Shown here: positions 16,901 through 35,633 of the stretch, piece by piece
How the letters are laid out: each line of letters starts with the position of its first letter
Position numbering within the stretch: the stretch's first letter is position 1
NCBI GenBank assembly: GCA_043381765.1
Contig: JBHJMP010000844.1
Span: 1-36,178, forward strand
Length of the DNA: 36,178 bases
DNA from: Collodictyon triciliatum
Lineage: Eukaryota
Direction of reading: 5' to 3'
The notes under the pieces: generated by a model
What the model saw: the letters and a program-made list of their open reading frames with translations, nothing else
Told to the model about the DNA's origin: nothing
Database searches by the model: none
Program-made: the position numbers and the translations under genes

Positions 16901-18649
16901 TTTATGGACAAAGAATGTCTTCATCTCTGTTTTATTTTTTACCGGCAAAATTGTGAGGGACACCAAGAAACTGACATATCCATAAAACTGGCAAAACAGT
17001 TAAAGATACTTGCAAAGATACCAACCTTTGAAGACATGCACTTTATATTTTTGAAAGTATTCTGAAAGTAGACCCATATTATAAGACTTCGCCGAACCCG
17101 CTGCAATTTTCAGCACCAACACAATTACTATCAATCAAATATATTCAAGCTACATATAAACGGAACTTGAGACAAATATTTGTAACGACGAAGCGATGCA
17201 AAAGAGGTTTGCAAGAATTAGTTTTCACATGAATGTATTTCAGCTTTTGTTTTTTACATACTTTCATTAAACAATCATGTTCTTTCATGTAAACCAACCT
17301 GAGGCCTGACGACTTGGACGAATTGTGACTGAAAAATCTGGAGACATGTGCCGGTGATTCTGGTTCGAAGCAAAAAAAAAGCCTTCTTTTTATATATTTG
17401 CATATTTCGCGCCTTCATTATAAAAATTAATCACTAATTGGATATTGTAGGTATCTAGTTAATAAAATTAAGTGTTTATGATAATGACACTTCTCAAGGC
17501 TTGTGGCGAACCAGGATTTTCAGAAGGAAATTTAAAAAAAGTTAATATGTTGTGTTTCCAAGTAACAGTGAAACAGCTGGCGGACACATCTGAATGCAGT
17601 TACCTTCATGGATTTCGTTTCAAAAAAAATGTGCGCTTCAATCCAATTGCGTTATTGCATTCGCATCGTTACACAGAGACCCCTCTGAAAAACGGTTATT
17701 TGTTGCAGATGCAAAATGATTAAAATATCTATGATATCTGAATTCTGCTAGAAAAAGCCAAAATCAAAAAATCAAAAAAAGAAAAACTTACCGCTTTACC
17801 ACAACATCACTTCACTCAAGAAATTTTGAAGTAATTTTTTACTATGTTATACGCAAATTCCTGATAGTTAAAGAAGATTTTATTTGTTTTTTGAATATTC
17901 AAAGCAATAAAATAATGATAAAAACGGAAAAAAGCAAGGCCTCCAAGTTTTTCGAATGATTGGATAAAACCCTAAGCCATGTCTCCAGACCCCTCTGGTT
18001 GTAATTTTTTTAAAAGGAAATCTCCAGCGCAGGCAGAGGAAGGAGACTCCATAGAAATTATTAGGATGGAATATGGAATGTCTCAAAGTAATGGTATCCC
18101 AAACCTCTTCATCTGTTTACTGCCATATTTCTGGGCTAGGCTCAAGTGAAAGAATGAATAATAGAGCGGTTCGTTCTGACTCAATTAAATCGCCTTATGT
18201 GCAAAGAAATATGATATATCGTTGAAACAGAAAACTTATTTTGGATTGGCTTTTAAAATTATTATTATTATATCACCTTGCAACATAGGTATGTGACTTC
18301 ATCTCAACCAACGAACATGCTCTTGGATATGAATCTGAACCTGTTGAACTAACTATTTTTTTGGTATTAAATATAGACATTAGCAAACTTTGAGCTGCCG
18401 ATAGGCGACCAACCCAGTGGCGCATTTCTCTGTGCGTGCAATATTGTCTTCAGCGCCTTCACAAGAATAAGATCGATCATACACTATGTGGTATATTTTG
18501 ATGTTTGGGTTTTTTTAACTCGTTTTTTTGTCCTGGACACGGCACCTCTTTCTGCTCGCCTTTACTTGCAACGCCGAAAGCCTTTCACAAAAGTCATCAC
18601 GTCCTTTCAAAAGACACACTTCATCTTTTCAGTTTCACTTCAAAATAAA

Positions 18650-18721
18650 ATGCAAATACACAGCCCCTACCTACAGATAATCATCATCACATGGAATCAC
18701 AGCAAGCGCTTGATTAACTGA
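18650..18721 (+). pseudogene. Possible N-terminal fragment of a LINE ORF2 APE endonuclease
   Basis: Reads MQIHSPYLQIIIITWNHSKRLIN*, resembling the 'L.IITWNV.GL' start of APE domains. It is A/C-rich and followed by an A-rich tract. The match is very short. Confidence 0.2.
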
Positions 18722-19340
18722 TGAACAAAAAAAAAATGGAAATAAATTCAAAAAAAAAGGAAAAAGGTGAAAAAAACCGAAAGAAAGACGAAAGCTGATT
18801 ATCTTTTACATATCTGGAATATATAATACAAAGCCACTTATTTCGTCACGTGACCACAAAACACGATAAAGTAGACAGAAAATGCAACCAATCTACTACA
18901 ATATGAGATCATGTTGGTATAACCTCCCGCATTTTTTCTACGTTTCGAATAATGTTTTTCTTATTCAGATCACACTTTGTGTCGCATACAGCTATTCGAT
19001 TTGTATAGATGGGGTTTCTCTTCAAAGAGTAAATCGTTCGTTTGCTTGTGACTTGAGAACGCCTCCAGCCTTCAAAGCTGCCTTGACGGTCAGGTCAGTC
19101 GGCTACATCGGCCTCGGGGTTGTTTTTTTTTATGCTTTCCTTAGCCAAAGTTAGTTGAAGTGTTTTCGGTGTTTTTCTTTCTTTTGATAATTTATTTTTG
19201 TTTTACTTTTCTAGTCTGTTTTAGTTTTCGGGTGCGTGTCATAGTCTGGGTCAGGACGGCAACTGAAAGCCTTGTTTGAATTACTTTCAGAGCAATGCTT
19301 GAGTTATTATAAAGGTTGCGAAAAAAACTCTTAAACTTTA

Positions 19341-20178
19341 GGCTTCGCAAGTTGCGGCTAATTCATCTGGTTCCAACGCTGGCGCAGGAAAATCCCGAGT
19401 TTCACGTAAGTCTAAGAAGACCCGTGTATGGAAGCCGCCTGCAAGTCTGTCTGAGCGGACGGTATTTTTGAACGGGTCGAGCGAGTCGTTTACAACAAGA
19501 ATAAGGCTCGCAGACTCACAAATGCGCTCGCCTCCCTCTTGAAAGCGAACAAACTTTGGAAGAGTCCATCCAATTGCGCTTACTGGACAGCGAAGGCCTT
19601 TGCCTGATTGCCTTTCGCACTGCAGAGAACGCCCGAAAGCTTCTGGAACTGAAGCAGGTAAGTTTGATAGATATTACGATCGGCTTCAGCAGAAAAGCTA
19701 ACAAAGACCTCGGTGATGCTCTACCAACTACTGCTGGACGTGTGGCTGCAACTCCTTCGTGAAAAGCTGAAGCCGTTCAGACCGACCCACGTGGAGATCA
19801 AAAATGAGAAAGGTTTATTTACAGACGCGGCCTTGGTAAAGCTTCTTTGTCACAAGAACCAGCTCCCTGCAAAGTTTACGGTCATGAGTAAAAAGTGTCC
19901 GAAGCGCATCCCCAAAGAGCGTCCGCCAGCCGCGAACAACGAAGATAAGTAAAAACCCCGCAAAATAGAATACACCTGCCAAGCAGATAAGCAGCGATGG
20001 GGTCAAGGAAGCCAAGGCCAGGCAACAACAGAGTCTACAAGACTCACAGCAGATACGCGTATTCAGCGACAGCGACGATGACATGGAAGGAAATCTCGGT
20101 TCCTCTTCAGCATCTTAGCACTCGACCACTTCACCGCCAACATCGGGCAAGCCCACACATCGCAAGACACAAGAGCTG
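19341..20178 (+). mobile_element. Degenerate LINE ORF1-like relic, copy A
   Basis: Homologous throughout to the reverse complement of 34449-35287. Joining frames gives LCLIAFRTAENARKLLELKQVSLIDITIGF...TSVMLYQL.LDVWLQLLREKLKPFRPTHVEIKNEKGLFTDAALVKLLCHKNQLPAKFTVM, which fits the tandem RRM-like pattern of L1/Tx1 ORF1 proteins. It has no introns and several frameshifts. The repeat itself is certain; the ORF1 assignment is by pattern only. Confidence 0.7.
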
Positions 20179-20646
20179 CGCATCTCCTCAACTATCAGTC
20201 TTGAATACAGATAGCAGGCGCTACAGTGTTCGACGCTCATTTATAGTTTTTTTTTGTTGGGGAACATGTATCTCTCCTTGCCATCCAAACATGCACTTTC
20301 TTTTAATATCATTTATCCTCAATATTTCCACTTGCGAAGCACAAATAATCCAGGCATCTAAAAAATTCCCACTGTTCCATCTAATGCTCACATATTTTCT
20401 TGTGGGTTGCGATGCTGTATCACTTTTTTTTTTAACAATAGAATGCCGCAAAGCTAAGCAATTAAACAGAAAGTAATAGAAAACAACCAAATACTATTCT
20501 GCATTTTTTTCCTGTGCTCATGTTGTGCCCAAGAGGAAAAAAATGAAAACAAACGGCCCATATTATAATGTTTGGGTAGTGGATTACTTCTGAAGAAGTA
20601 GAAATAGGTTCTTCCTTTCATCAAGTGCTTTACTATCATTTGTAAT

Positions 20647-20674
20647 CAAAACAAAACAAAACAAAAACAAAAAC
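20647..20674 (+). repeat. Short (CAAAA/CAAAAA)n microsatellite downstream of the receptor stop codon
   Basis: The sequence caaaacaaaacaaaacaaaaacaaaaac is directly visible. Confidence 0.8.
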
Positions 20675-20804
20675 ACAGAAACTGTGAGTTCTTGGCTTCT
20701 AACCCCAAGACAGCAGTGAAAAGATTCTGTTTTATTCCAATCTCGGTGTCCATTGAGCACGTATTCATTCACCGCAACGCAAAGACCTTTGGCTGTGGCG
20801 CATC

Positions 20805-23800
20805 CTACGCAGACAGCTCATCCTCCACCATCGAAAATGACGGCCTCTTTTCTGGGTCAGCATCCCAACAACGCTTCATCAGCGCAGAGGGTGATGCGTT
20901 CATGTGCTTCGGTATTGCTGGGCGCAATCCGTTTGTCACCTCGAAAGCCAGCTTGAGCGGGTCCACATCGGTGTAAGGCTTTTGTCGAGAGGCAACTTCC
21001 CAGGTGAGGATAGCGAAGCTGTAGACATCCTCTTTTTCGTTGTATTTGATGCCTTTCAATATCTGATAAGAATCGGAATGATTAAGGAGATGGTTATGTT
21101 CGGCGGGTATGCTTGTTTAATTGCCAGTTTTCAATCACACATACCGATACAATCGCTATGGAATAAATGAAAAGATGAAAAGGAATTGTCACTTCGTATA
21201 AATTTGTTATATGGTAACAACAAAAAGAAAAAAAGAAAAAAAGGAAGAGTTTCATATATTCTTTGGTCTCAGTCATCATCGATAAACTTTCAAATAAAAA
21301 CGAAGCAGGTTATTTTACTGATATTACCTCCGGAGCAATCCAGGCCTTTGTTCCACACTTTGTCATTGTTTGGTTATTGGCCTTCACACGAGCAAGTCCA
21401 AAGTCCCCGATTTTCGCAATGATGGGGTCGGTTTGGATAATCTGTTCGGATTGGCGTAGTGTGTACACAAAAGAATCAAAAGAATATACTTTCACTCTTC
21501 TTTATCATAGGCCTGAATTATAACGCTCCGAGAGCCCATCATAATATGATTTGTGGAAAAATATAAAGAGAAAAAACAATGTTATGTGTGATAACTTACC
21601 AAGACATTTTCACTTTTGAGGTCTCTGTGGTAAATAGGCGGTTGATGGTTATGCAAGTATCTCATCGCTCCAGCGATTTGGTGCAGGATTGATTTTTGGG
21701 TGTCATATGTAATTATATTCTATTTGTTTTCATGATATGATTATTTTAAATAAATGATGCATCGTGCACATTTTTGATTTTATAAACTGTTTGTTAGCTA
21801 TTATGGTTTCAAGTAATAAAAGATGAATATAAAAATATACGCTTGGTTCCATCAAGTGCTTCTTCAGGCTTCCAAAAGGTGCATATTCAATGACAAGGCA
21901 CAGATTCGGTTGCTCAAGACAGGCACCGTGGAATCGAAGGATATTGGGATGTTGAATTTCCCTGTAAAAAACGAATAAATTAAAAACTAGGGCACGATGA
22001 AAGAAAAAGAGCTGGAAATAGCCACATGTTTGATTAAATATCATAGTGTTCTTTCATATTATAAAAAATAATACCTCATCAGAATCACTTCAGACATAAG
22101 AGAATAGAGTTGTTTCTCAGCCATCTTTTGTCTAATAAACTTCTTGACTGCGACTTGGGTACCCGAGACTTCTCCCAAAAAGACGACTCCATAAGAGCCA
22201 GAACCAAGCTCGGTGGTGCTGATTTTGATATCCTCATGTCGCAACTGCCACGATACGGCCTTGAAAAGAAAAAAAAAGAGGAATACATACCGTCACACCT
22301 TTCTTGTACTGAATATGACATCTCACTTTGCTAATCTGATTGAATATCACGAGGCGCATGAAGTTGGACTAAAAATTAAGATATTCTAATACACATACCT
22401 CATTGTTAGAGGCATCTTCGGCTGAAGCTGTCTCCACAACTCCCAATAAATTTTGACTGGAACTGGATGCAAAGTATTCAGAACGGTCTCGCAGAATGTC
22501 CGAAGTTACCTACACCATTTTTTCCCCCAAAAAACGAAAGAGATTTAGAAATGTATTTTCTTCTTATTATGCCATATTAACAAATGTATCTATTAAGAAT
22601 ACAATTGATGTGTGAACCTCAAACAAGTGCATATGCGCTGGTAGTCCTTTCATCTCATGATACCCAAGGTCACGAATAATAGGGTTATTGACTAGTTCCA
22701 AGTCGTTGGATATAGCCTGAAAAGTGTTTGAATTAAATCCTTTTCTCCATTCCAAAAAAAAAAGACAAAGAAAATGACTTAACCGATTGAATGTAAACAT
22801 CAATGATTTCGTAACCCTAATTAATTTTACTAAAATATCTACATTATAAACATCTTCTCCGATGACAACTTGTCCTCCTTTAGGATGAGAGCCAATGCGC
22901 GCTGCAGTATTCACAACAGGTCCGTAGTAGTCCATGCGCCCAGTGATGGGGTCTTCACGGCAAAAAGGGTCTCCGATATGTATTCCCTTCATCATTATAA
23001 AGCATCGTTAGTTTTCTATAAAGTACCAACGTTTCATTCTCTATGTATCTTTTTTTTTTTTTTTGATATCGAATAAGTAGTTATAGTATACAAAAAAAAA
23101 TGTCCCACGATACCATTCGCACACGTATGCCTCGGAACAACATTCCTTTTGGAGTCCTTATAACTCCAGCTGAAGGGTGAGAAAATATTTTGTTTGGCCA
23201 ATCAACAAGCAAGAGCAATTCTTGAGCTTGAAGAGCAAAGTTCACAGCGTTGGTGACCTTCTCGAAGGCAATCATGAATGCATCTCCTTCCGTCTTCACC
23301 TCATATCCCTGGTTACGAAATTGGATTTATTTGAATGAATGGATAAAAAAATAGTTAAATACATTGCACATTGAGAGATATACTAGCGAAATAACCCATC
23401 AATCTAATTTTGACAGATGAGCACATAATCATGTATCTCCTTACCTTGTTTCTTTTGATAGCTTCTCGTATTATATCATTGTGGAGATTCAAGACCGTCA
23501 ACATGTCTTCAGGGTATTTATCCCAAAGGGAGGTAGAACTTTGAATGTCTGTGAAAATGAGAACCACAGTGCCTGTGGGTGCAACATCGTTCTGGACTCT
23601 GGACTTCCTCATAGAAGTGGAAAATGTAGTCGAAGACGCAGATTCTGGGCTCTTGCCTGCAATTTGCTTCAATACCTCACCAAAGTTTGGCCTGTCCATT
23701 GGATTCTGTGCCCAGCACCTCTCAGCAAGAAGGCGAAGAACAGGGATAAGCTCGTAAGTAGCCAGGAATTCAGGGCGCAACGAACCATCCGCCACACGCA

Positions 23801-26800
23801 AAGCCACAGACTCGGCAAGCTCACCCTAGGAGATGAAAAAAATCATTCGTTTTAAAAGAATTTGGTTCCATTTTTTTTATTAATACAAACATTTCAACTA
23901 CCAGCTAATCTCAAAGAAATAGTTGTTAAATGAAGAAATGATTGATTAAAATATACCGCATACGGCTCCTCTCTACTCAAGACTTCCCAAATGATGATAC
24001 CGAAGCTAAATATGTCGGATTTGTCGATGTATTCTCCTCCTTTGATAACCTCTGGGGCCATCCATAGGAGCGTCCCAGGTGGCGCAGCGTCCTTTTCACG
24101 GGTAGATTGCACGCCAGTAAGACCAAAGTCGCTGAATTTTTTTAATCAATATGAATAATACCGAAAATTACAAAATAATTTTCTTCTCTTTATAACAAAA
24201 AAAAAAAAACATCTCCGAATTCATCTTTTCAGATATCATATTAAACCTGATTTTACAGTTCCACTTATCGTCCAACTGCGATAAGATTCGAAATCGGTGC
24301 ATGATTAAGTGGTTTGTATGTTAGTGATTGATTGGAATGTCTACATACAATGAGCATAACATTGCAAAAGAAATCACCAGCAAGTTAGGACTTTTTAAAT
24401 CCTTGTGCAAGATTGGAGGGTTGGACATGTGCAGGTATTGAAGCCCTTTTTTTAAATATGTATTAATGATTATATGAAATGTTTGCAGAGCCACCCAGGC
24501 CACTATACTTTTATAAATCATTAATATTGAAGTACCTTTCGCAGCATCTGTGATGAAGGAAAACCTCATGTCCTCATCAATATCAATAGTAGTGTTGTGC
24601 AGAATCTGATAAAAAAATTCGAGTGAATGGTAACCCAAATTATAATATATTGTTACGAGGCAAATTAAAGTAGGATTGGAATCACCCAACATTTTACATA
24701 TTAACCCACATCATATAAACTTCCTCGGGTCATCAATTCGGATACGATACACAAGTTCTCCGGTTCTACACAAGCAGCCATGTACAAGACAATATTGGGA
24801 TGGCGAAGTTCCCTTATTATTTTTTTTTTTAAAAAAAACAAACAAGAATCACTTTGTCGCAAAATTGGACTAATATCACACGTATTTATGCATATGATAA
24901 AAGATCAGAAGACGAAGCAAGTATCAAATAGAAATATATCTAGATAGGAAGTCAGAAAAGATTACTCACACCATGATTCCAACTTCGGCCTCAAATTCTC
25001 GAATCGCTGCTTTTGTCAGCTTCTTTGAAATTAGTTTTTTCATAGCTACATCTGAGCCTCTCCACTTGCCTATGAATACCTACAAAAATTATAGATTACT
25101 ACCAATTTGTGTTTACTAAAAGACATATTAATGAACTAAAAAAAATTGTAATCAAAGATTATGCGATATATCTCACCTCTCCAAAGCTTCCTGTTCCAAG
25201 CAGTTTTCCAAGCTCAAGATCTTTGTAGTCGACATGCATGAATAGTTGCTTTTGTTTCGAATCTATAGCGTCCATCTTTTCTTTGTATTTCTTGTAGCCA
25301 AATAGCACTAAAAAGAGTACAACAGCTCCTGGTACACCAACAGCCAAGCCAATCACCAATGGAGAGCCTATTGAGTAGTACAAATGAATATACAATGAAA
25401 GAAAGAAGTAAAAATATACCCACATGTACGATACGAAAGAAAGAAAATATAAACATTCTCTTTAGTTCCATTATTACCCTTTTTCGATGATTTGGGGCAT
25501 GAAGTCTATTGATGTGATGCAGGGTTATTACATTATAATTATTTTTTTTTAAGGATTAACGTGGGTATATTAGTCACACAAGTATATGTAATTATGACTA
25601 GTGTAAAATATATTCTGAATAAGCTATTTAAAAAAATAAGCCTTACATCTGATGAAGAGCTAGTGCATTTCAGACACTCGTTCGATGTTGTATCCTCAAA
25701 ATAGTTTGTTGGGCAAGCACACAGACTATTTTCAAATTTTGAGCCAGTGGGACAGTCTAAAACAAACATTTAATAGTTGAAGCCATCAAAAAACAGCCAA
25801 AATATAAGCCATTAGAAGTTAAAAGATGAGAAAAAGAAAATGAAGCTGGCATATTTTTATGAGACGAAATATTGATGAATTACTTATGTGTTTGATATCT
25901 ATTCCGTCTCCTCTCAGACCATCGATTATCTTCCCTGGCGACTTCAAAACTATCAATGTGTTTCTCTTCAGATTTGAAACATCGTAATGACCCGGCTTTG
26001 TTATTTCTGTAATTAACTGATTCGGAGAACTATCTCGAAACTCATACACGAGTACACTGTATGATATGATGCGTATTAAAAAAAAAAGGCACATATCTTT
26101 ATATTCTAATTTGTATAACCTGAAAAGAGAATATAAATGATGACCTAAGATGTCATGGAATAGTTTCTATTTTTCTAAATATGAACATTTTAACAGTTTA
26201 CAAACCTATCTCCTTCACTTATGGACGCATTGATGGAAAAGAAATTGCCGGTCTTGAAAAGATACTGGCAATGAGTCCCCGCTGGGTATCGACCTGGCCC
26301 AGAGCCATCTTCGAAGTGATTCACTTCTCGCGCGCTCATGACCTCTTGATGCAGGGTCTCAGCACACATACTTGGAGATGAACAATAAATATTTTATATC
26401 ACATCTTGATTAACGGAAACTGAGACAATAATACTTATCAAATGGTCATACTAGAGCGATTTAGAAATAAAGATAACAGGCTGCTTACTCGGCTCCATAA
26501 CGAAAACAGAGTTCAACGAGTATGTTTCTGTGCTTCCACCGAAAGTGTACATTTTTTCCTCGGAAAAGACACCACCATGTTCTCCAACTTGAGCAGGATT
26601 TTCTTCCTTTGAAGTATACTTCAGCTCAACCCACTGCTTCACCCCTGTTTCAATACAGTTAAAAAAATGCAGCGTGAATAATAATAGAAAAAACAGAAAA
26701 GAAAACTAAATTTTGTAGACAATTGAATTACCTATTTGATACTGGAAGACGGCGCTTGTTCTCCTGGATGCCTGGTCAAATCCTCCATACACAATTAAAT

Positions 26801-29800
26801 CGTCTCTGAAGGTGCCTACAAAGGCCCCATAACGATAGACTTGGGTGGTGTCTTTGAATGATGTCATAACGCTCCATATGCGAGTAGCTGCAGTTTTTTA
26901 ATTATGTTTTTGTTATTTTTTTTTTAAAAAAAAAGTACTTTTGTTGTTAATATTTATTTATTAAATTGGGAAAAGGCTATGTGAAGGAAGAAAAAGTAAA
27001 AAGGGAATACGAAAAAAAGCAAAGAAGCAAAAAAGAAAGTTGATAGTTAGCGTACCAGCATCAAAGCACCACAGATCGCTCAAGACTCGATTTTTGAAGT
27101 CGCGTCCACCGTGAATGCAAAACCCAGAGGCGGTGGAAGCGGCTCCGTGGTCTCTTCGGGGATTCTACTCATAATAAAACCATCAAACACAGTCCAATAA
27201 TCTCACAAGTTTGTGTCTGACTTTTGAATGCCCAAGAATATCTTTTACAGGAGATGTGGAGAGCGCTTCGAAAGTATCCAGAGTCAAGGTCGACGGATTA
27301 AAGACGAATATAGCTCTGTAGTCCTCAATGACACCGGTTCTTACAGACAACTTGTGTATTTTTATGTTAAATGATGAATAAAGATCGAGTGAAAGCATTA
27401 ACCAAGATAAACTAAAGACGTTCGTATCATAGCTGTTATTACAATGCCGCCCCAAGCCCAGACAGAACCGTCATATGATATTGCAGAGAATCCTGTTCTT
27501 TCAAGAAAGTGCTGGTCTGTCGAAAGAATGTTCTCCAACCCAACCAATTCCCATCTGAGCGGGACTGTAATAATGGGACAAGGTCAATCAACATGACTGA
27601 TATGATGAGAACACAACAATCTTTTACTTTTTATTTTGTTATAATTACATACTGTCTCGTAGTACATCGATGATATCCTGAATTCTGATTCTCCACATAT
27701 TTCCTGCGTCACTTGCAAGACTTTGAGTACCTCCATATGCATAAACGTGCCCATCATAATACGTTATGCATCCATAAACACGGGGCGAAATAGAATCCGA
27801 TGTTGTGTACTTGACGATGAGCGCCCACTTGCTTGTGGCTATGTGAATAATAGCTCAGTATTATTGAAATCTGGGTGAAATACGATTAAAACATGATGCT
27901 TGTTCTCTTAATGTAATATGTGTTGGTGTTTGGCTACCCACTTATATTATAAAGCCACATGTCATTCGTGGCATATTCATCTCCAACAGAGACCACACCA
28001 CCAAAGACAGCAAATCCATCTTCCATCACTCTTTCAACCGCATGTCCGTATCTTTCGAGAGGTTTCTGAACACTTGTAGAGCTTAGCCAAGTATCTCGGT
28101 CTATTGTAAATTAAAGAGAAGAAAAAGAAGTGGTGTTATACTTGCTTTGTTTTGTTTTATTCTTAGGTATTGAAAATTGATTTCATAGGTCCTTAAACAT
28201 ACTCTTTACAATAACTTAATAAAATTGGTTCTTAAACATTCAAAACACGAAGCGATTAAAAAAAAATTCAATTGAATGACGAATAAATACCAGGGTCATG
28301 CGTCCACAAGTAATTTCCGGGTATATTTGACGAGTATCCTATACCACCAAAAAGCAAAATAAATCCATCTAAAGGAGCCATCGCAGCCATGAATACTTGT
28401 GGCGGTGCGCTCTCTGGCAAAGGGGGATTATTTCCATAGTTATTTCGGAGGCTGAACACTAGGATATCTATTTTTTGATACAAAAGTTTTTTTTATTCAA
28501 ATGTACAAAAAATAAAGAACCCATGCATCTGTATAACTCTGTTCATTCTTGAGCAAAACAAAAGGTTTTACCTTTATCAAATACTAATATGTCACGAAGG
28601 GATGTCTCTGTTTGAATTCCACCGTAAATGAAGATATATCCACCGGACTCAGAGTACGACATCATTTGGCGTGGCAGTTGGCAATCGATTATAGATTTTG
28701 CAGCGCATCCGAGACAATTATCTGGTGTAACATGCTGAGGTGATAAAAACTTCCTCGAAGCTGTTATGAACGGGAAAAAACAGCTTTTAGATTTGGTTAT
28801 CTAATGAAACTTTTATTGACTATATGCACATATATCTTGTATTGAATTCGAAAAAGTGAGTACCATTAAACGTCATTATTAAGTTTTTTTTTTTTTGCTT
28901 TAAGACTTACGTAAATGTCCTTTGTAGATAAAGTCAAGCTCTTGTGTTCCGTCATATCCCCGAATAAAACAAAATAGCACCCACTTGCCCAGCCGATGTG
29001 GTACGAAAGGGAAGGGGATAAATCAAAGTCTCTGCTTTCCCATGTATCAGAGTCTATATGTTGGTGGGGTCATGTTGGTTAGATGTCCATGCTCACCAAA
29101 ATAATGCCAAATTTTATGTTTTAAACGATTTCAAAGTACCGAGGTTGTACTCGAATACTGATGAAACGCCGTTTCCGACTGTCTATTGAATATCAACATC
29201 TGAGCTCTTTTTTCTTTTCGTGATTATAGATAATAGTTTTTTTTTATAAAAAAGGAGGTCATTTTGGTTCCTTACATTTTCCCCGCCATGAATATAAACG
29301 ATCGAATCTTTCCTTGCATATGCGAATCCAGACAAGTCGAACGGGGAGGCACTTTTCCTCACCCATGAGTTGCTTTCCAGGGAGATGACATACGTGCAAA
29401 GGTCAGTTTTTGACGGGCTCCTACCACCAATATAGTAAATCTCGTCATCATAGTAAATTGCGCATGCGCCTTTCCTGCTTGGAGGTGGGTTGCTTGTACT
29501 CAAAAGTTCGAATGAGAGAGATACTGTAAAAAGGAGTTGGAGATTAACAACCTATGTGTCGCTCTACCTCTTGAAATACGTATTGCCAGTCTTTCACATA
29601 TGTTTAACAAGTATGAATGCAAGGGAAATTTAAAAAATTGTTGCACACTTGGAGATTTCACATCGATGGCGACAATCAATGCTGTCTGCGTTTGGTCAAT
29701 TATAGGAGTACTGTACATACATATGATGTATACATCGCTTCTTGTGGATGCCGATGCTGAGTAGAGGCAGCTGGGAGCGATGGCGAAATGTTCTCCCAAT

Positions 29801-29815
29801 TTCCTGTGGGTCCAT
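20805..29815 (-). CDS. Single-pass receptor: kelch repeats - CUB - Cys-rich - TM - TKL kinase - class III cyclase - TKL kinase; one 1-nt frameshift at 28958-28961; 5' end unresolved
   Basis: About 30 exons joined by hand at GT-AG sites give a continuous frame from about 28955 to the TAG at 20805-20807. Domains are listed as separate features below. Confidence 0.88.
20820..22232 (-). other. C-terminal protein kinase domain (TKL-like, RD type) of the receptor
   Basis: Motifs [56 protein letters not shown] and [13 protein letters not shown]. Confidence 0.93.
22618..23580 (-). other. Class III cyclase domain between the two kinases (fungal/trypanosome AC-like subtype)
   Basis: Motifs [38 protein letters not shown] and [14 protein letters not shown]. 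Both metal-binding Asp, the adenine-specifying Lys/Asp and the Asn/Arg pair are present. Confidence 0.93.
23670..25220 (-). other. Juxtamembrane protein kinase domain (TKL-like, HKD catalytic loop)
   Basis: Motifs [55 protein letters not shown] and [13 protein letters not shown]. Confidence 0.93.
25294..25359 (-). other. Transmembrane helix of the receptor
   Basis: [22 protein letters not shown] is followed by KKYKEK (positive-inside rule). Confidence 0.9.
25478..26370 (-). other. CUB-like domain followed by a Cys-rich (EGF/furin-like) juxtamembrane segment
   Basis: C...[20 protein letters not shown]...DSVLVYE resembles the attractin-type CUB 'DG.G.Y...C.W.I' motif. It is followed by [30 protein letters not shown]...SCP. 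Confidence 0.7.
26488..29815 (-). other. Extracellular kelch-repeat region, about 12 blades
   Basis: Eleven hydrophobic-GG motifs (YYIGG, YIHGG, LFGG after frameshift repair, FIYGG, LLFGG, AVFGG, YAYGG, WAWGG, CIHGG, IVYGG, YTFGG) plus a degenerate first blade, with PR.GH-like and downstream Trp motifs. Confidence 0.88.
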
Positions 29816-29989
29816 CTACAGCTATTTACAATCAATCAATTCATTTTGAAACTGCAATATTGTCAAATCATACAGAGTTAAGTACGCTTATGCATGCAAT
29901 AGTGCCACAATTCCAAAATATGACAACCCGATCCATTTATACGAAATATGAACAATGCCGATAAAACCGTCCACTAAAATGAAATAAAC

Positions 29990-32900
29990 CTTATTGATGT
30001 CGTTCTAGTAAAACCCTTCCTCGCACGGAAAGCACTCTCCACTTGGCGTGATGTACTTGTTTATCTGGCAGACGCATAATAGGCCCCGAATACGAATGCA
30101 TTTGGACAGGCTATAAATAATTGAATGTTTTTGATAAATGAGCTTTCGTGTTGAATTTAAACCCATATGTACTTATTATACCCCTCAAAGAGACTTAGAA
30201 TCAGAATAACATACAGAAGAGTTGAGCGAGAATCCTCCCATCGAGACCAGCATCCTGATGTAATGTCATGAGAAGCGATGAACCAGGTGTCTTGACCCAC
30301 ACACCAGGACCCCAGAGATGAAATTTTCACCTTATTAACAATAAACAGCATGTTAATACAATAATGAATAAAGTCAGGATATGAATGAATTGGTGTTTAA
30401 ATTTTTTCAAATAAATAAATCGGCGCCGCTATCGACTTCATTCACATATATGATTTGGTCTCCACACTTATTCAGTGAATCAACTTCACGACAGAAAAAA
30501 TATCCGTATCCATCGCGGATATCTGATAATTACGAGCGTTCAACTCTTTTGTTTGCATACTAAATTTTTTACTATCGTATATTGTACTTTCTCGAAAAAA
30601 GCGCACATACCATCAAATTGCTTGTGTGTGATACCCTCCACAAATATTTTGCAAAAGACATACAAATGAACCACTGCCGTCGGTTATGCTTTGTACTCTA
30701 TCTCTACATTACTAGTCACTTCTTCACAGCAAGACATTTTGCCTGTAATATTGGAATGAAAACACTTATGAAAATCATTCCATTATTTTAATACAGAAGA
30801 CATAAAACGTTAACGAGGTAATTAAAGCCTATTTGAGGCCTTGAAAAGAAACCATTCATCGACTATCGATATTTCCATTCATAAGAGCTTATCCATGTCG
30901 TATCCAAATATCCAAAAATATATGAGTCATTTGATGTTTCATTACCCTAACCTCAAATCAATCCGATTATCGTAAGTGATTGTTCTGTGCGTTTTGAATG
31001 GAGTGGTGATTCGGGGCAGTCTCTCATCCCCATATTTCTGCATCTACATCCCGTACATACAAAAAAAGCTCATTCATTAAATTTTATGCTACAAATTTTA
31101 GGTCACTGTCAGATTGTTGACCGAATGGAAATAATTGATTCAAAATATTGTTGAAAATACCATAGATGTAAATCCATATGTTTAGTGAAAACGTGTTTGT
31201 CAAGTCCTCGCCTCCGATGAGCAGGCCAGCTCCAACATCGATGAAATATGAGTACAAATAGCTTTCTATGTTCGAATATGAATTTGTGAGCTAATTACGT
31301 ACTTGAAAACTTATAATGGAACACTTGATATTTTAACATGTTCTCAAAATAATCAGATGTCAAAAAAAAAGAAACTTGATTTCTTTGAAGAGCAAATGTC
31401 CGTTATTGGGTTTTAATCAAAACACCCCTTGAATAATATTTTTTTTGTTAAAAAATTACAGGCGCTTGAATCCTTTTCTTTAATCCTGGGAATCCGCCAT
31501 TAACCTCAGCAGTATTCGTTTCCATGTCATAGTATATTAATGTCGTTTCGTTAACACAACCTGTGCATACAGATTCATAAATTCCTCACCAAAAATATAG
31601 TTTGGAGCAAATGGTGGATAGAGTCTGTTGTGTCATGAAACCAAAATGTGAGACACTCAGATTGATTTCAAGCTATTCTTATGTAATGAAATATTCCGTG
31701 TTTTCTTCTCTTTTTATGCCAAAATGAGTTTATAATATAATGATAACAATTAACGGATTCAAAAATATGTTTTTACAGAAAAGGCACCAGTAGGAGTGTA
31801 GTCTTTGAAGCTAGATGGGTCATATACTTACCGTTCAAACAGACGGGTCCGCATCCTTGAGCATACAATTTGGAGTCTGGTATTTGAGAAGAATGCCATT
31901 ATCACATGTATTTATTTAGAATTTTAATAATATGCCATTCTTATGCAAATCAATCTACAAACAATACCTGTAAAATACATTCAAACACTGAGCGAAATCC
32001 TCCATAGAATGCAAAACCAACTCTGATGGTTTCAAAATGGACAAGTCGAGTAGAATGTAGCAGAGCAGAATAAAGAAATATGCCTAACCTGTATGATTAT
32101 GTTACCTTTTAAGCAGATTGTTAAGACTAAGGTTTTAACAGTCGTTTTGATAAAAGTAAGCAGTAAATCAGATTTTTTGGCTAATATAACCCCAATATAT
32201 AATCTGGTGATGTATTGAACATGTTCATATCCAACAGTGTGTATTGAGCTCTGCTATTTTTATTTCATTAGATTATAAATCTCCAACATATATCCAATCT
32301 TCAGCCTGAATCATCGGCACGAGCAGCTCCACTGCGCAGCTGAAACATGCACTCACCGAGCTTTGATGCAAAAAAGAAAGAACAGAGCGTTGGGCAGGTT
32401 ACACTGTATGGCTTGGGTTTGATTTCACAAGTGTATTCTGAAAATGTGTAATTTCAATCTGTGTTCATAATTTTACACGGCTACATATGAACTTACAAAA
32501 TCCCATGCTCTGGTTTATTATGAATTATGTACAGATATTTTACAGCTTATCATATATAATCGGAAAAGAAGTATCAATTAAGTGCCTCATTGACGTGTAT
32601 CCCAACCGCAAAGAGTGGTGCTCTTTGGTCCGTGAACGAATATTATTTCTTAAAAAAGTAACAAAAATTGACGATGAACGTGCAAGCAGGCTTATACACT
32701 CTAGGCAAGTAACTAGATAGTGAATGGTCCAATTTTCGTTTTACTCAGAAAAACGCACCTGAAGATAGAATTTTATTAATCATTAGTTGGGATGCCAATA
32801 AACACGAACAAATGAAAACGCCTCAATACTACCAAAAAAAAACAAACCAATAATCCAGCAGACACCCTAACCGGATGAATACAATCGCGTATACCAAATT

Positions 32901-33843
32901 TAAATCCCCAGAAGCCATTCATATCAAAATTATATAACCCAGCTGCAATCATTCTCACTACGCGTGTAAATTATTCTATAAAGCAAATATTTAGTATCAC
33001 TCAAGTGAGTTTTACACATTTGTACGACAACCAGCATCATTTTTCTTTAAAGCAGTTTAAAAAGGGGTCTTAAAATAAAAAATATCGCAGAAAACCAACT
33101 CAAATTCACAAAGCCAAAGCGTGTTAGATTAAACCATCCAGCACCTCAAAATATATGAGCATTCTGATAGATACTTTATATATCAAGAGAACAGAGAAGA
33201 ACAAAGACAGCATCGCCAGGACATGTTTCCACATATCCATTCGGACTGTCAAATGAACCGGAGCTGCTGTGTGCATGGAAGAACCCATCTACTTGAAACA
33301 AAACAGAATTACAAGCAAAAGCCAGGCTGGTGAGGAGTGAGTGAATGTCGTCCATCAAAAACAGAGAATAACGATGACATAAAGGTCATTCATACATGTG
33401 CCAGTGATTCTGCCAAATAGTTAAGCCTAAAATTTACAATATGTTTGATGTCATTGATTGCATGATATAAGAAATAAAAAAATCGTCAAAAATATCAATC
33501 ATTCATTCATCCTTGTCTCCCTTTTTTATTCGAATGTTTGAAAAAAATTGGTCGTGGTCATTAATTATCTTATTCTCTGGAGAGTGTGTATGATTGCATT
33601 TTTGTACGATTAATTTTAATAACCAAAACTTGTGATACGAAAAAAAGAAAAAAAGTAAAGTCCTACCATGTGTTCAAAGGGCAGTTGTGCCGTAGTCGTC
33701 ACGAACCAGGATTGCACCAACACATCCACGGTCTCACTTGAAGTCGTTGAGTAAGGATTATTTTGCAATCTACTAATATTACTGAGTGTATTTAATGACA
33801 TATCTTCCTCTCTATAATAAGATAACATCATCTGATAAAACAA
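29990..33843 (-). pseudogene. Decayed paralogous kelch/CUB/Cys-rich ectodomain module upstream of the receptor gene
   Basis: Exon-like pieces: ITDGSGSF (about 30664-30687, CUB start), GVWVKTPGSSLLMTLHQDAGLDG (about 30240-30305, CUB end) and SCPNAFVF/GLLCVCQINKY...CFPCEEGFY* (about 30005-30110). Weaker kelch-like echoes lie at 32.3-33.3 kb (FDMNGF versus FDLSGF; DAVFVLLC versus SDVYIIC). There are many frameshifts and stops, and the upstream limit is uncertain. Confidence 0.55.
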
Positions 33844-34448
33844 TATTGTTAAAAATATCCTTAAACGTGGATTTCTTTAGGTCTTTTTCATATTTGGAGA
33901 GTGGTTTATGTGAAACATAAATTCAAAATATGGCGACATATTATGATTTCTTTCAATGAACAGGCACCAACTTTTTAAGCCTAATTTCGTATCAAATATG
34001 TACTCGAGTTACAAAGAACGTATATCCTGACGGTAATGCGCGCATGTTAGTCTGGTTCATCGATTGGTCTGAAGGAGAAAAGTTATTTAAAAGAGAGAAA
34101 TTAGAGAAAAAGTCGCCACTCCATGACTAACAGACGAATGAAAGTAAAATATGAAAAAAATATTGGGAAAATATACAATATTGTGGGTTAAAAGACAGAG
34201 TATCCACAATTATTTTTCAAAAAAACTAATAATTGTACATGAAATAGCCTTACAGATAATAAATAGATTATGGACGAAACCATACCGTCTCCTAGAATTA
34301 TGTGGTTTTTTTTGGGATTTCGAGATGAAAAATATAAAAAGCAGTGATGTATTAATGCGAGACATACACTCATATAAAGAGAATTCAACCTGAGAAGTGA
34401 ACAGTAACACAGCCCCTGTTTGTATATGAGAGAGAAGAAATTCAGATA

Positions 34449-35287
34449 CAGTTATTGGGTCTTGCGATGTGCGAGCGTGTCCAGCGTTGGCGGTGGAGGG
34501 CTCGAGTGCGAGGATTCTGAAGAGGGGCCGAGATTTCCTCCCATGCCATCGTCGCTATCGCTTTATGTGTGTATATGCTGTGAGTCTTGCGGAGTCTGAT
34601 GTTGCCTGTCCTTGGCTTCCTTGACCCCGTTGCTGCTTGTCTGCTTGGCAGGTGTATTCTTTTGCGGGGCTTTTACTTGTCGTTCGTTGTTCGCGGCTGG
34701 CGGACGCTCTTTGATGATGTGCTTTGAACACTTTTTATCCATGACCGTAAACTTTGCAGGGAGTTGGTTCTTGTGACAAAGAAGCTTTACCACGGCCTTG
34801 TCTGTAAAGAAGGCTTTCTCCTTTTTTACGTCCATGTAAGTTAATCTGAAAGGCTTCAGCATCTTGCGAAGGAGTTGCAGCCACACGTCCAGTGGTAGTT
34901 GGTAGAGCACCACCGAGGTCTCTGTTGGTTTAATTCTATCGAATCTGATTATAATATCAACCAACATGCCTGCTTCAGATTCAGAAGCTTTCGGTCGGTT
35001 TCTGCACTGCGGAAGGCAATCAGGCATAGGCCTTCGCTGTCTGGTAAGAGCAGTTGGATGAACTCTTCGTAGAGTTTGTTCGCTTTCAAGAAAGAGGCGA
35101 GCACATCTGTAAGTGCGCAGATTTGTTCCTGTTGTAAACGACGTGCTCGACACTGTGTAAAAATACTTTCCGCTCAGACAGACTTGTAGGCAGCTTCCTT
35201 GCGCGAGTCTGCCTGGACTTGCGTACAAGTTGAAGGTCTTCTGCAACAGTGCTGGAACTGAAAGAACTTAACATACCTCGCAAAGTC
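34449..35287 (-). mobile_element. Degenerate LINE ORF1-like relic, copy B (inverted relative to copy A)
   Basis: Encodes TSVVLYQLPLDVWLQLLRKMLKPFRLTYMDVKKEKAFFTDKAVVKLLCHKNQLPAKFTVMDKKC. In the best segment I counted 100 of 108 nt identical to copy A; the 5' part is more diverged. Its frameshifts and stops fall at different places from those of copy A. Confidence 0.7.
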
Positions 35288-35633
35288 TTCGGGTAACACA
35301 TTAACACAATCTTCACCATGTTTTCATTTCCATCGAACGTGGAGACTTTATTGCGAAGAAATGTGAAATGCACGAGACTTTCATAATATATCACATGAAA
35401 CATCTGAATACATCATAAAATAAGCTGTGATAAACGCAGGATAAAAAAAAGGGGAATATTCTTCGGAACAGAAAAGATCCTTTATAAAGATATCGTCTAA
35501 TGTAAAGCACAGGCTTGCCGTGGCTGACCTGTGGAATGGGAAAATAAAAGGGTATTTCAACTAATTGTAGAGACAATATAGGTTTAGTCTCGCAGTTATA
35601 TTTGAATAAAAGTTTATACTGAAAACCATTCTC

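Follow-up and report, generated by a model that had tools for sequence, protein, structure and literature searches.

Here we report a spliced receptor gene of Collodictyon triciliatum, located on the minus strand of a 36,178-nt stretch of DNA (contig JBHJMP010000844.1, positions 1-36,178; hereafter the window). The encoded chain consists, in this order, of 12 kelch blades, a CUB-like module, a Cys-rich EGF-like stalk, a transmembrane helix, a protein kinase (kinase 1), a nucleotidyl cyclase and a second protein kinase (kinase 2); the last three are referred to as the kinase-cyclase-kinase chassis. This domain order and the approximate number of blades had been proposed from the letters of the DNA alone (hereafter the sequence-only reading) and were recovered by Pfam matches per exon and by blade signatures. 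The window has the base composition of AT-rich eukaryotic DNA (G + C content about 0.30-0.46), the short coding pieces of the gene span positions 29835 to 20805, and Rfam and tRNA scans of the window gave no match.

Gene model and domain structure

The gene model was built from 31 stop-to-stop pieces of the minus strand, which were scanned against Pfam at exon level (E <= 0.1). Kelch-type families matched nine of the 31 pieces, all within 29551-26454, and protein-kinase families matched eight, in one group of three (24904-23897, kinase 1) and one of five (22292-20808, kinase 2). Guanylate_cyc matched three pieces between both kinase groups (23825-22570). Frame-keeping GT..AG introns were enumerated between successive pieces and picked by eye, and three small exons absent from the list of open reading frames (ORFs) were added (29182-29140, 25505-25478 and 24275-24247). 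The resulting first model has 34 exons (29821-20805, minus strand) in one stop-free frame of 1,628 codons, followed by a stop codon at 20807-20805. All 33 introns are of the GT-AG type, with lengths of 81-265 nt and phases compatible with one frame, so that the single spliced frame from ectodomain to kinase-cyclase-kinase that the sequence-only reading had assumed was obtained with canonical introns throughout.

Alignment of the first model to protein P0255 of Diphylleia rotans revealed gaps at three junctions and a frame change within exon 29053-28911. The acceptors first picked (28734, 28458 and 27323) were replaced accordingly by 28760, 28467 and 27350, and an X was placed at a G4 run (28958-28961), which yielded a refined model of 1,649 residues. 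Identity to P0255 over 1,641 columns was 57.0% for the refined model and 55.9% for the first, with 26 and 47 gap columns, respectively; across models, the intact open frame comprises about 1,630-1,650 codons. A strong donor (GTAAGC at 26488) and the only good acceptor, at 26371, are one base out of phase; the model therefore relies on a weaker donor at 26451 and gains 12 residues that have no counterpart in P0255. The extra stretch near 26489-26370 could be either an insertion specific to this lineage or another small error.

The kelch part is encoded by 13 exons (29821-29649, 29523-29276, 29182-29140, 29053-28911, 28760-28572, 28467-28291, 28100-27942, 27838-27653, 27564-27443, 27350-27249, 27164-27056, 26887-26732 and 26644-26452), which were assigned by Pfam Kelch matches, hhhhGG signatures and 43% identity to P0255 residues 664-1305. 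The count of 12 blades, or about two six-bladed propellers, comprises ten hhhhGG signatures, a further signature that is broken (exon 29053-28911) and a first blade that is degenerate. The best solved matches of one kelch exon were generic kelch proteins such as KLHL7, KLHDC2/10 and LZTR1. The Pfam family Beta-prop_ATRN-LZTR1 stayed below its cut-off in the exon pieces of the window (best score 33.1 vs 50 bits) and exceeded it in the D. rotans homologues, and it was outscored by the generic kelch family PF24681.

The CUB-like module is encoded by two exons (26370-26206 and 26056-25884) and shares 41% identity with the module of P0255. Among the homologues it follows the pattern C...G.I.DGSG..Y.....C.W ... 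GF....C, followed by a stalk of the form C.C....(F/Y)....G.C..C. The CUB profile of Pfam matched none of the 31 exon pieces; of ten aligned CUB-like modules, one weakly matched the CUB family PF23062 (E 0.011), and a profile of the module found five PDB sequences, all with E >= 0.32 and no CUB among them. The fold was predicted for the orthologous module of D. rotans P0159, the module of the window being split by an intron, with a 10-row alignment that included the three exons of the window (39%, 23% and 36% identity to the P0159 module). The predicted structure is all-beta, with a mean predicted local distance difference test (pLDDT) score of 82.8 and a predicted template modelling (pTM) score of 0.76. 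Foldseek returned 31 PDB matches with E <= 0.001, and all listed rows through rank 31 contain CUB, including enteropeptidase, MASP-1/2, C1r/C1s, TSG-6, neuropilins, PCPE-1, Neto2, cubilin, spermadhesins and Kremen; the target-normalised template modelling score reached 0.64 for single CUB domains. As a description of fold, the term CUB-like chosen in the sequence-only reading is right for the modelled orthologue, and the module of the window would share this fold by homology, although Pfam does not recognise it as CUB in any piece.

The stalk comprises a Cys-rich EGF-like exon (25756-25647) with a weak EGF_4 match (E 0.023; best member E 0.0026) and 55% identity to P0255, and a 28-nt micro-exon (25505-25478) that is needed for the phases to fit. 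No Pfam match to PSI or C-type lectin was found in the pieces of the window or in four homologues. The transmembrane helix (25294-25365) forms a single hydropathy peak; the highest 19-residue Kyte-Doolittle window (2.75) lies at residues 808-826 and is followed by KKYKEK (residue positions here and below are those of the first gene model).

Kinase 1 (23660-25230; PK_Tyr_Ser-Thr/Pkinase matches and motifs) is encoded by exons 25367-25177, 25079-24970, 24812-24710, 24605-24536, 24445-24378, 24275-24247, 24131-23957 and the first part of 23825-23445. The cyclase (22618-23590; Guanylate_cyc matches on three exons and motifs) occupies the second part of 23825-23445 and exons 23308-23114, 22986-22843 and 22716-22618. 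After a linker exon (22509-22399) follows kinase 2 (22259-22075, 21961-21841, 21719-21600, 21441-21328 and 21062-20808; kinase matches on all five exons and motifs). Two exons cross the domain boundaries: exon 25367-25177 encodes the transmembrane helix, a stop-transfer stretch of basic residues and the kinase 1 glycine loop, and exon 23825-23445 encodes the final helices of kinase 1 and, after a Ser-rich linker, the first cyclase strand. Both fusions are therefore independent of any splice choice.

The catalytic motifs of the three domains lie at residues 862-1020, 1144-1275 and 1382-1541 and were all found, as the sequence-only reading had stated. Both kinases have kept the glycine loop, the VAxK lysine, the HxD catalytic loop, DFG and APE; in kinase 1 these are GTGSFG, VAMK, HKD (in place of HRD), DFG and APE. 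The cyclase motifs are FTDI and KTEGDA, which we take to hold both metal aspartates and the lysine, and DYYG..N..AR, which presumably provides the aspartate, asparagine and arginine. In class III cyclases, a Lys/Asp pair specifies adenine and an Asn/Arg pair acts on the transition state. Among solved structures, each of the three cyclase exons is most closely related to the receptor adenylate cyclases GRESAG 4.1/4.3 of Trypanosoma brucei (1FX2/1FX4), which align colinearly (residues 8-51, 55-93 and 137-180) with matching catalytic residues. By its retained residues, the domain is predicted to be a class III cyclase of the adenylyl type. Identity to P0255 is 78% for kinase 1, 73% for the cyclase and 72% for kinase 2.

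Four public sequencing runs (X1-X4, of which X4 is DNA-type) cover parts of the locus and were compared over 17000-36178. RNA joints back six of the 33 introns, each of them within the region of cyclase and kinase 2. Three joints are exact, namely 21063-21327 (X1 and X2) and 21720-21840 and 21961-22074, the latter two in one metatranscriptome contig that is 100% identical to the window; three others have a few unaligned letters (about 21442-21599, about 22260-22398 and 22510-22617). An RNA contig from a related organism covers exactly 23444-23825, the kinase 1/cyclase exon 23825-23445. The 3' third of the gene is transcribed and spliced. At 29800-33000 there is no RNA cover in X1-X3, which is not readable as an absence of exons.

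Relatives and known receptor systems

A HMMER search with the kinase/cyclase exon recruited 1,213 proteins at E <= 0.001; unlike this exhaustive search, a word-index search of the same exon against longer proteins found none at that threshold. Pfam analysis of 23 of the best 150 HMMER relatives identified 15 with a cyclase only, two with a kinase only, and six with kinases and a cyclase. Two of these six carry kelch domains (P0014 and P0019) and the others ANF_receptor, SBP_bac_1 or Cu/Zn superoxide dismutase; according to the cluster names, the kelch-bearing relatives are D. rotans transcripts and others stem from Mastigamoeba, Fabomonas and Pelomyxa. The kinase-cyclase-kinase order was present in 30 of 164 proteins collected by local BLAST with parts of the model, and Pfam analysis of 15 of those 30 added 5'-nucleotidase C, animal haem peroxidase with DOMON, and Laminin_G_3 to the sensors. 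Homologous kinase-cyclase-kinase proteins occur in Mastigamoeba, Pelomyxa and Balamuthia; the recruited proteins included no Acanthamoeba or Physarum sequence. Outer domains that were unexpected on this chassis were seen in P0022, P0056, P0039 and P0109, and comprise Cu/Zn superoxide dismutase (in D. rotans), animal haem peroxidase with DOMON, 5'-nucleotidase C and Laminin_G_3 (in Mastigamoeba).

When D. rotans P0152 (residues 865-2505) was compared with a collection of 5.8 billion sequences, 83 matches were obtained at E <= 1e-10, among them 15 clusters with kelch and kinase, ten of which have a recorded cyclase match. All ten of the kelch-plus-kinase clusters that were traced to an organism belong to D. 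rotans (P0179 and P0181-P0183 lie outside that count), and at least 15 clusters of this type exist. The spliced protein aligns to P0152 in a single high-scoring segment pair (42% identity over 1,658 columns) and to P0255, its best match, end to end. The D. rotans proteins (EukProt EP00002: P0255, P0152, P0159 and P0171) are colinear with the receptor over the whole intact chain, and they differ from it in their length (2,200-2,530 residues), a signal peptide, and a second, N-terminal unit of kelch, CUB-like and EGF modules. Since the D. rotans sequences are derived from RNA, ectodomain and tail are joined in one ORF there. The full combination, for which the sequence-only reading could name no characterised example, is not unique: D. 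rotans transcripts carry kelch, CUB-like module, transmembrane helix and kinase-cyclase-kinase in one ORF.

The link to the kinase-flanked receptors of Acanthamoeba and giant viruses that the sequence-only reading had drawn agrees with the sections of the published family descriptions considered here (PMC4053784, PMC5203793). The Acanthamoeba genome paper, where the family was noted for the first time, counts 67 nucleotidyl cyclases that join an extracellular receptor domain and a single transmembrane segment to a cyclase between two Ser/Thr kinases, and reports the same kinase-flanked configuration in giant viruses (PMC4053784). In the sections considered, 66-67 such receptor cyclases are given for Acanthamoeba castellanii and 43 for Physarum polycephalum, and Protostelium is said to lack them (PMC4053784, PMC4758236, PMC5804921); an exchange of these genes between amoebae and viruses is discussed (PMC5203793). 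The architecture was called unique to Acanthamoeba among cells in 2013 and 2016 and was later reported in Physarum (PMC4053784, PMC4758236, PMC5804921, PMC5203793). Those sections report no biochemical test of a kinase-flanked receptor cyclase (PMC4053784, PMC4758236, PMC5804921, PMC5203793), which agrees with the earlier statement that no member has been characterised. They also contain no mention of the chassis in D. rotans, Fabomonas or C. triciliatum, the supplementary ectodomain figures for Acanthamoeba and Physarum lying outside the material covered.

The receptor resembles the Acanthamoeba, Physarum and giant-virus proteins in having an outer domain, a single transmembrane helix and kinase-cyclase-kinase in one chain, a chassis also seen in proteins of Mastigamoeba, Pelomyxa, Balamuthia and Fabomonas. 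It differs from the chassis proteins of other lineages in its sensor, which here consists of kelch, CUB-like and EGF-like modules, whereas theirs are ANF_receptor, solute-binding, 5'-nucleotidase, peroxidase/DOMON, LamG or Cu/Zn superoxide dismutase domains. The chassis had been described before; a kelch/CUB-like sensor attached to it has no printed mention in the literature covered, to which the supplementary ectodomain figures for Acanthamoeba and Physarum do not belong.

Three other systems share parts of this anatomy. The receptor adenylate cyclases of T. brucei, closest to the cyclase exons among solved structures, are type I receptors whose single catalytic domain has to dimerise; they have a periplasmic-binding-protein-like ectodomain and no flanking kinases. 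The membrane guanylyl cyclases of animals, such as the atrial natriuretic peptide (ANP) receptor, likewise combine an ectodomain, a transmembrane helix, a kinase-homology domain and a cyclase and act as dimers, and ANP receptor 1 was among the PDB matches of the kinase/cyclase exon (E 0.005). They differ in their single, inactive kinase-like domain, the lack of a second kinase, their guanylyl specificity and their ANF_receptor ectodomain.

Attractin and MEGF8, to which the sequence-only reading had likened the ectodomain, are single-pass membrane proteins that also combine a kelch propeller with CUB and EGF-type modules. Their order is EGF-CUB-EGF, a single kelch propeller, PSI, C-type lectin and laminin-EGF, followed by a short, non-catalytic tail. 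In the receptor, by contrast, the CUB-like module comes after the propellers and not ahead of them, each unit has twelve blades instead of six or seven, PSI, C-type lectin and laminin-EGF have no match, and the tail is catalytic. The module composition upheld the comparison; the order of the modules, the missing PSI and lectin domains and the generic best matches of the kelch part did not, and the likeness is one of domain composition only.

The 5' end, the upstream remnant and the status of the gene

The gene start at 29815 given in the sequence-only reading had to be abandoned. The ATG at this position opens a different frame with an ORF of 39 codons, the first coding exon starts, in phase 2, from the acceptor at 29821, and five codons further upstream the frame is closed by a TGA; together, these observations require a further upstream exon. 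Four D. rotans homologues have hydrophobic, signal-peptide-like N-termini.

Both ectodomain units of P0255 were compared with the window by protein-to-genome dynamic programming that allowed introns and frameshifts; strict penalties were used, because looser ones gave scores of 280-340 for shuffled controls. The intact unit (P0255 residues 664-1465, window 29900-25600) scored 1571 (shuffled controls 61 and 68) and aligned 779 of 802 residues with one frameshift (at 28957) and no stop. The N-terminal unit (P0255 residues 1-663, window 33200-29822) scored 325 (shuffled controls 42 and 50) and aligned 561 of 663 residues with ten frameshifts and four in-frame stops. The corresponding stretch (29978-32940, minus strand) contains kelch blades, a CUB-like module with DGSG and an EGF-like piece (30094-29984) and is colinear with P0255 residues 23-637. 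From these alignments we take 32940-29978 to be what decay has left of an ancestral first unit, and the intact gene to be a shortened derivative. One disruption in 779 residues compared with 14 in 561 residues of the remnant argues that selection continued to act on the intact part once the first unit had gone.

The single disruption of the intact unit is located at the G4 run in blade 3 (28958-28961, minus strand), where one base is lost from the conserved frame by a frameshift or an assembly error. An X1 RNA contig of a close relative has one more base at this run (33.9/33.9 depth). With the run as written, the open frame survives only via acceptor 28734 in place of 28760. Either an assembly error or a real, early lesion would account for the missing base.

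Taken together, the locus is best explained, with good though not full confidence, as a protist receptor-type kinase-flanked cyclase with a kelch/CUB-like/EGF-like sensor common to a large gene family of D. rotans, which would make cyclic adenosine monophosphate (cAMP) as a dimer and is present here as a shortened copy. Its anatomy, the retained catalytic motifs, the colinear homology and the transcription and splicing of the 3' third are direct observations. The mechanism would be as follows. The chain has a single cyclase domain, which would provide both metal aspartates, the Lys/Asp pair and the Asn/Arg pair. The active sites of class III cyclases form across the dimer interface, so that a chain with one cyclase domain is expected to produce cAMP only as a homodimer. 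A ligand binding from outside to the propeller or CUB part would set the geometry of the dimer, and two cyclase domains would then complete each other's active sites and yield cAMP. The flanking kinases would phosphorylate the partner chain or substrates in trans and thereby tune the cyclase. Dimerisation driven by a ligand, as suggested in the sequence-only reading, is a reasonable inference. In the history of this copy, the first ectodomain unit upstream would have decayed, and one base would be missing from the G run in blade 3.

Several observations weigh against this explanation. The frame conserved with relatives shifts at the G4 run in the alignment to P0255, and X4 agrees with the window there, although the assembly may itself derive from X4, whose contig stops a few bases from the run. 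When 5' exons opening with ATG and closing with a phase-2 donor were considered, neither a signal peptide nor a start codon was found for the intact frame; the best candidate (MIFISVFIPILQAK... at 30778-30720) is an unverified guess from hydropathy and phase. Among the RNA contigs compared, none bridges the ectodomain exons correctly. An X1 contig of a related organism at 27213-28990 has six skips that do not match the exons (27336-27431, 27599-27788, 27895-27988, 28131-28291, 28463-28651 and 28856-28927), of which two are GT..AG on the plus strand and four non-canonical; two of these joints recur in X2, the joined segments of the window contain no long ORF on either strand, and the contig, which did not enter the gene model, may be an antisense or aberrant transcript. 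The likeness to the Acanthamoeba and Physarum members was drawn from published descriptions rather than from their sequences, and enzymatic activity, ligand and dimer are putative for every member of the family.

The strongest rival, which we consider unlikely but worth weighing, is a dying gene that has lost its N-terminal half and signal peptide, so that the rest no longer forms a working receptor and the frameshift in the G run is its first lesion. The upstream unit with its ten frameshifts and four in-frame stops would fit such a course, as would the one-base loss at 28958-28961 with X4 agreeing and the candidate 5' exons without a signal peptide. Moreover, only five of the 11 frameshifts have a homopolymer of at least four bases within 8 nt, compared with a background of 34%, which indicates that the disruptions are not just assembly errors. 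On the other hand, about 1,650 codons in 34 exons are open with canonical splice sites and one lesion only, and neutral decay would not have spared 4.9 kb of coding sequence. The catalytic motifs are intact, the kinases and the cyclase share 72-78% identity with their counterparts in the D. rotans protein, and the 3' exons are transcribed and correctly spliced in an RNA contig 100% identical to the window. For the G run itself, the relative's RNA has the full G5 and the alternative acceptor at 28734 is in frame.

It is improbable that the cyclase makes cyclic guanosine monophosphate or is a regulatory pseudo-enzyme. In favour of such a reading, the Pfam family spans adenylate and guanylate cyclases, and cAMP is a predicted product. 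Against it, Lys (KTEGDA) and Asp (DYYG) occupy the two specificity positions, as they do in adenylate cyclases, the metal aspartates and the Asn/Arg pair are kept, and the closest solved relatives are adenylate cyclases.

Still less probable is a reading in which the upstream 3 kb are the working first half of a two-unit receptor of 2,300 residues and the disruptions are assembly errors. The stretch is colinear with P0255 residues 23-637, its length of about 3.2 kb fits a 660-residue unit with introns, and three frameshifts that were viewed by eye sit in G4 or T4 runs and would each be cured by one additional base. Against this, the same assembly shows 14 disruptions in 561 residues here and one in 779 residues of the neighbouring unit, six of the ten upstream frameshifts lie away from homopolymers, and the stops fall within conserved blocks, one of them inside the GG motif of a blade. 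In the D. rotans paralogues the N-terminal unit is as conserved as the C-terminal one (38-43% vs 34-40%), yet default tblastn found only three blocks over the upstream unit of the window. A separation of ectodomain and kinase-cyclase-kinase exons into two adjacent genes, which the sequence-only reading had raised against itself, is close to refuted: none of the RNA contigs compared spans the junction, but the transmembrane helix and the glycine loop of kinase 1 share an exon, 33 intron phases fit one frame, and the colinear chain of D. rotans is encoded by mRNAs with a single ORF.

For the shortened but retained receptor, the finding broadens the sensor repertoire and the taxonomic spread of a family of which some protists carry dozens of members, and it introduces no new principle. 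A propeller, two active-looking kinases and a putatively dimer-dependent cAMP synthase would make it a compact model of one receptor that emits two signals. More tentatively, the kelch/CUB-like/EGF sensor on this chassis might mark out a separate and expanded class of receptors in collodictyonid-like protists; the chassis would then be an old modular sensor platform of several deep eukaryotic lineages. In that case, the chassis would be no peculiarity of Acanthamoeba and giant viruses, contrary to what is in print, since members from Fabomonas, archamoebae and D. rotans would count as well, and a kelch-CUB-EGF surface cassette resembling attractin/MEGF8 would be older than animals.

Surroundings of the gene

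Another spliced transcript is located upstream of the receptor gene (33156-34400, minus strand). Three of its joints (33425/33666, 34068/34254 and 34290/34389) are CT..AC on the plus strand, and a fourth (33820/33940) is GA..AT with 10 unaligned letters. A loose poly(T) end before 33154 marks the 3' end of this transcript and thereby bounds the receptor locus. The locus is flanked by three inverted-repeat pairs (19559-20178 and 34449-35068; 106-249 nt, 82-86% complementary, about 14.3-15.3 kb apart) that encode paralogous ORFs without a Pfam family. RNA contig depth is 300-1,400 at the repeats, whereas the receptor gene has a depth of 1-30; in one X2 contig, 19977 and 34660 are joined although they lie on opposite strands, and the repeats are probably a dispersed, highly expressed family.

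At the other end of the window, a plus-strand ORF of 256 codons (687-1457) matches zf-RVT (E 6e-9) and is preceded by an open ORF of 198 codons (3-599) in a GC-richer stretch; the region 3-1457 looks like the tail of a non-LTR (long terminal repeat) retrotransposon. The window ends with about 560 nt of imperfect (T5-8 G)n repeats (35620-36178).

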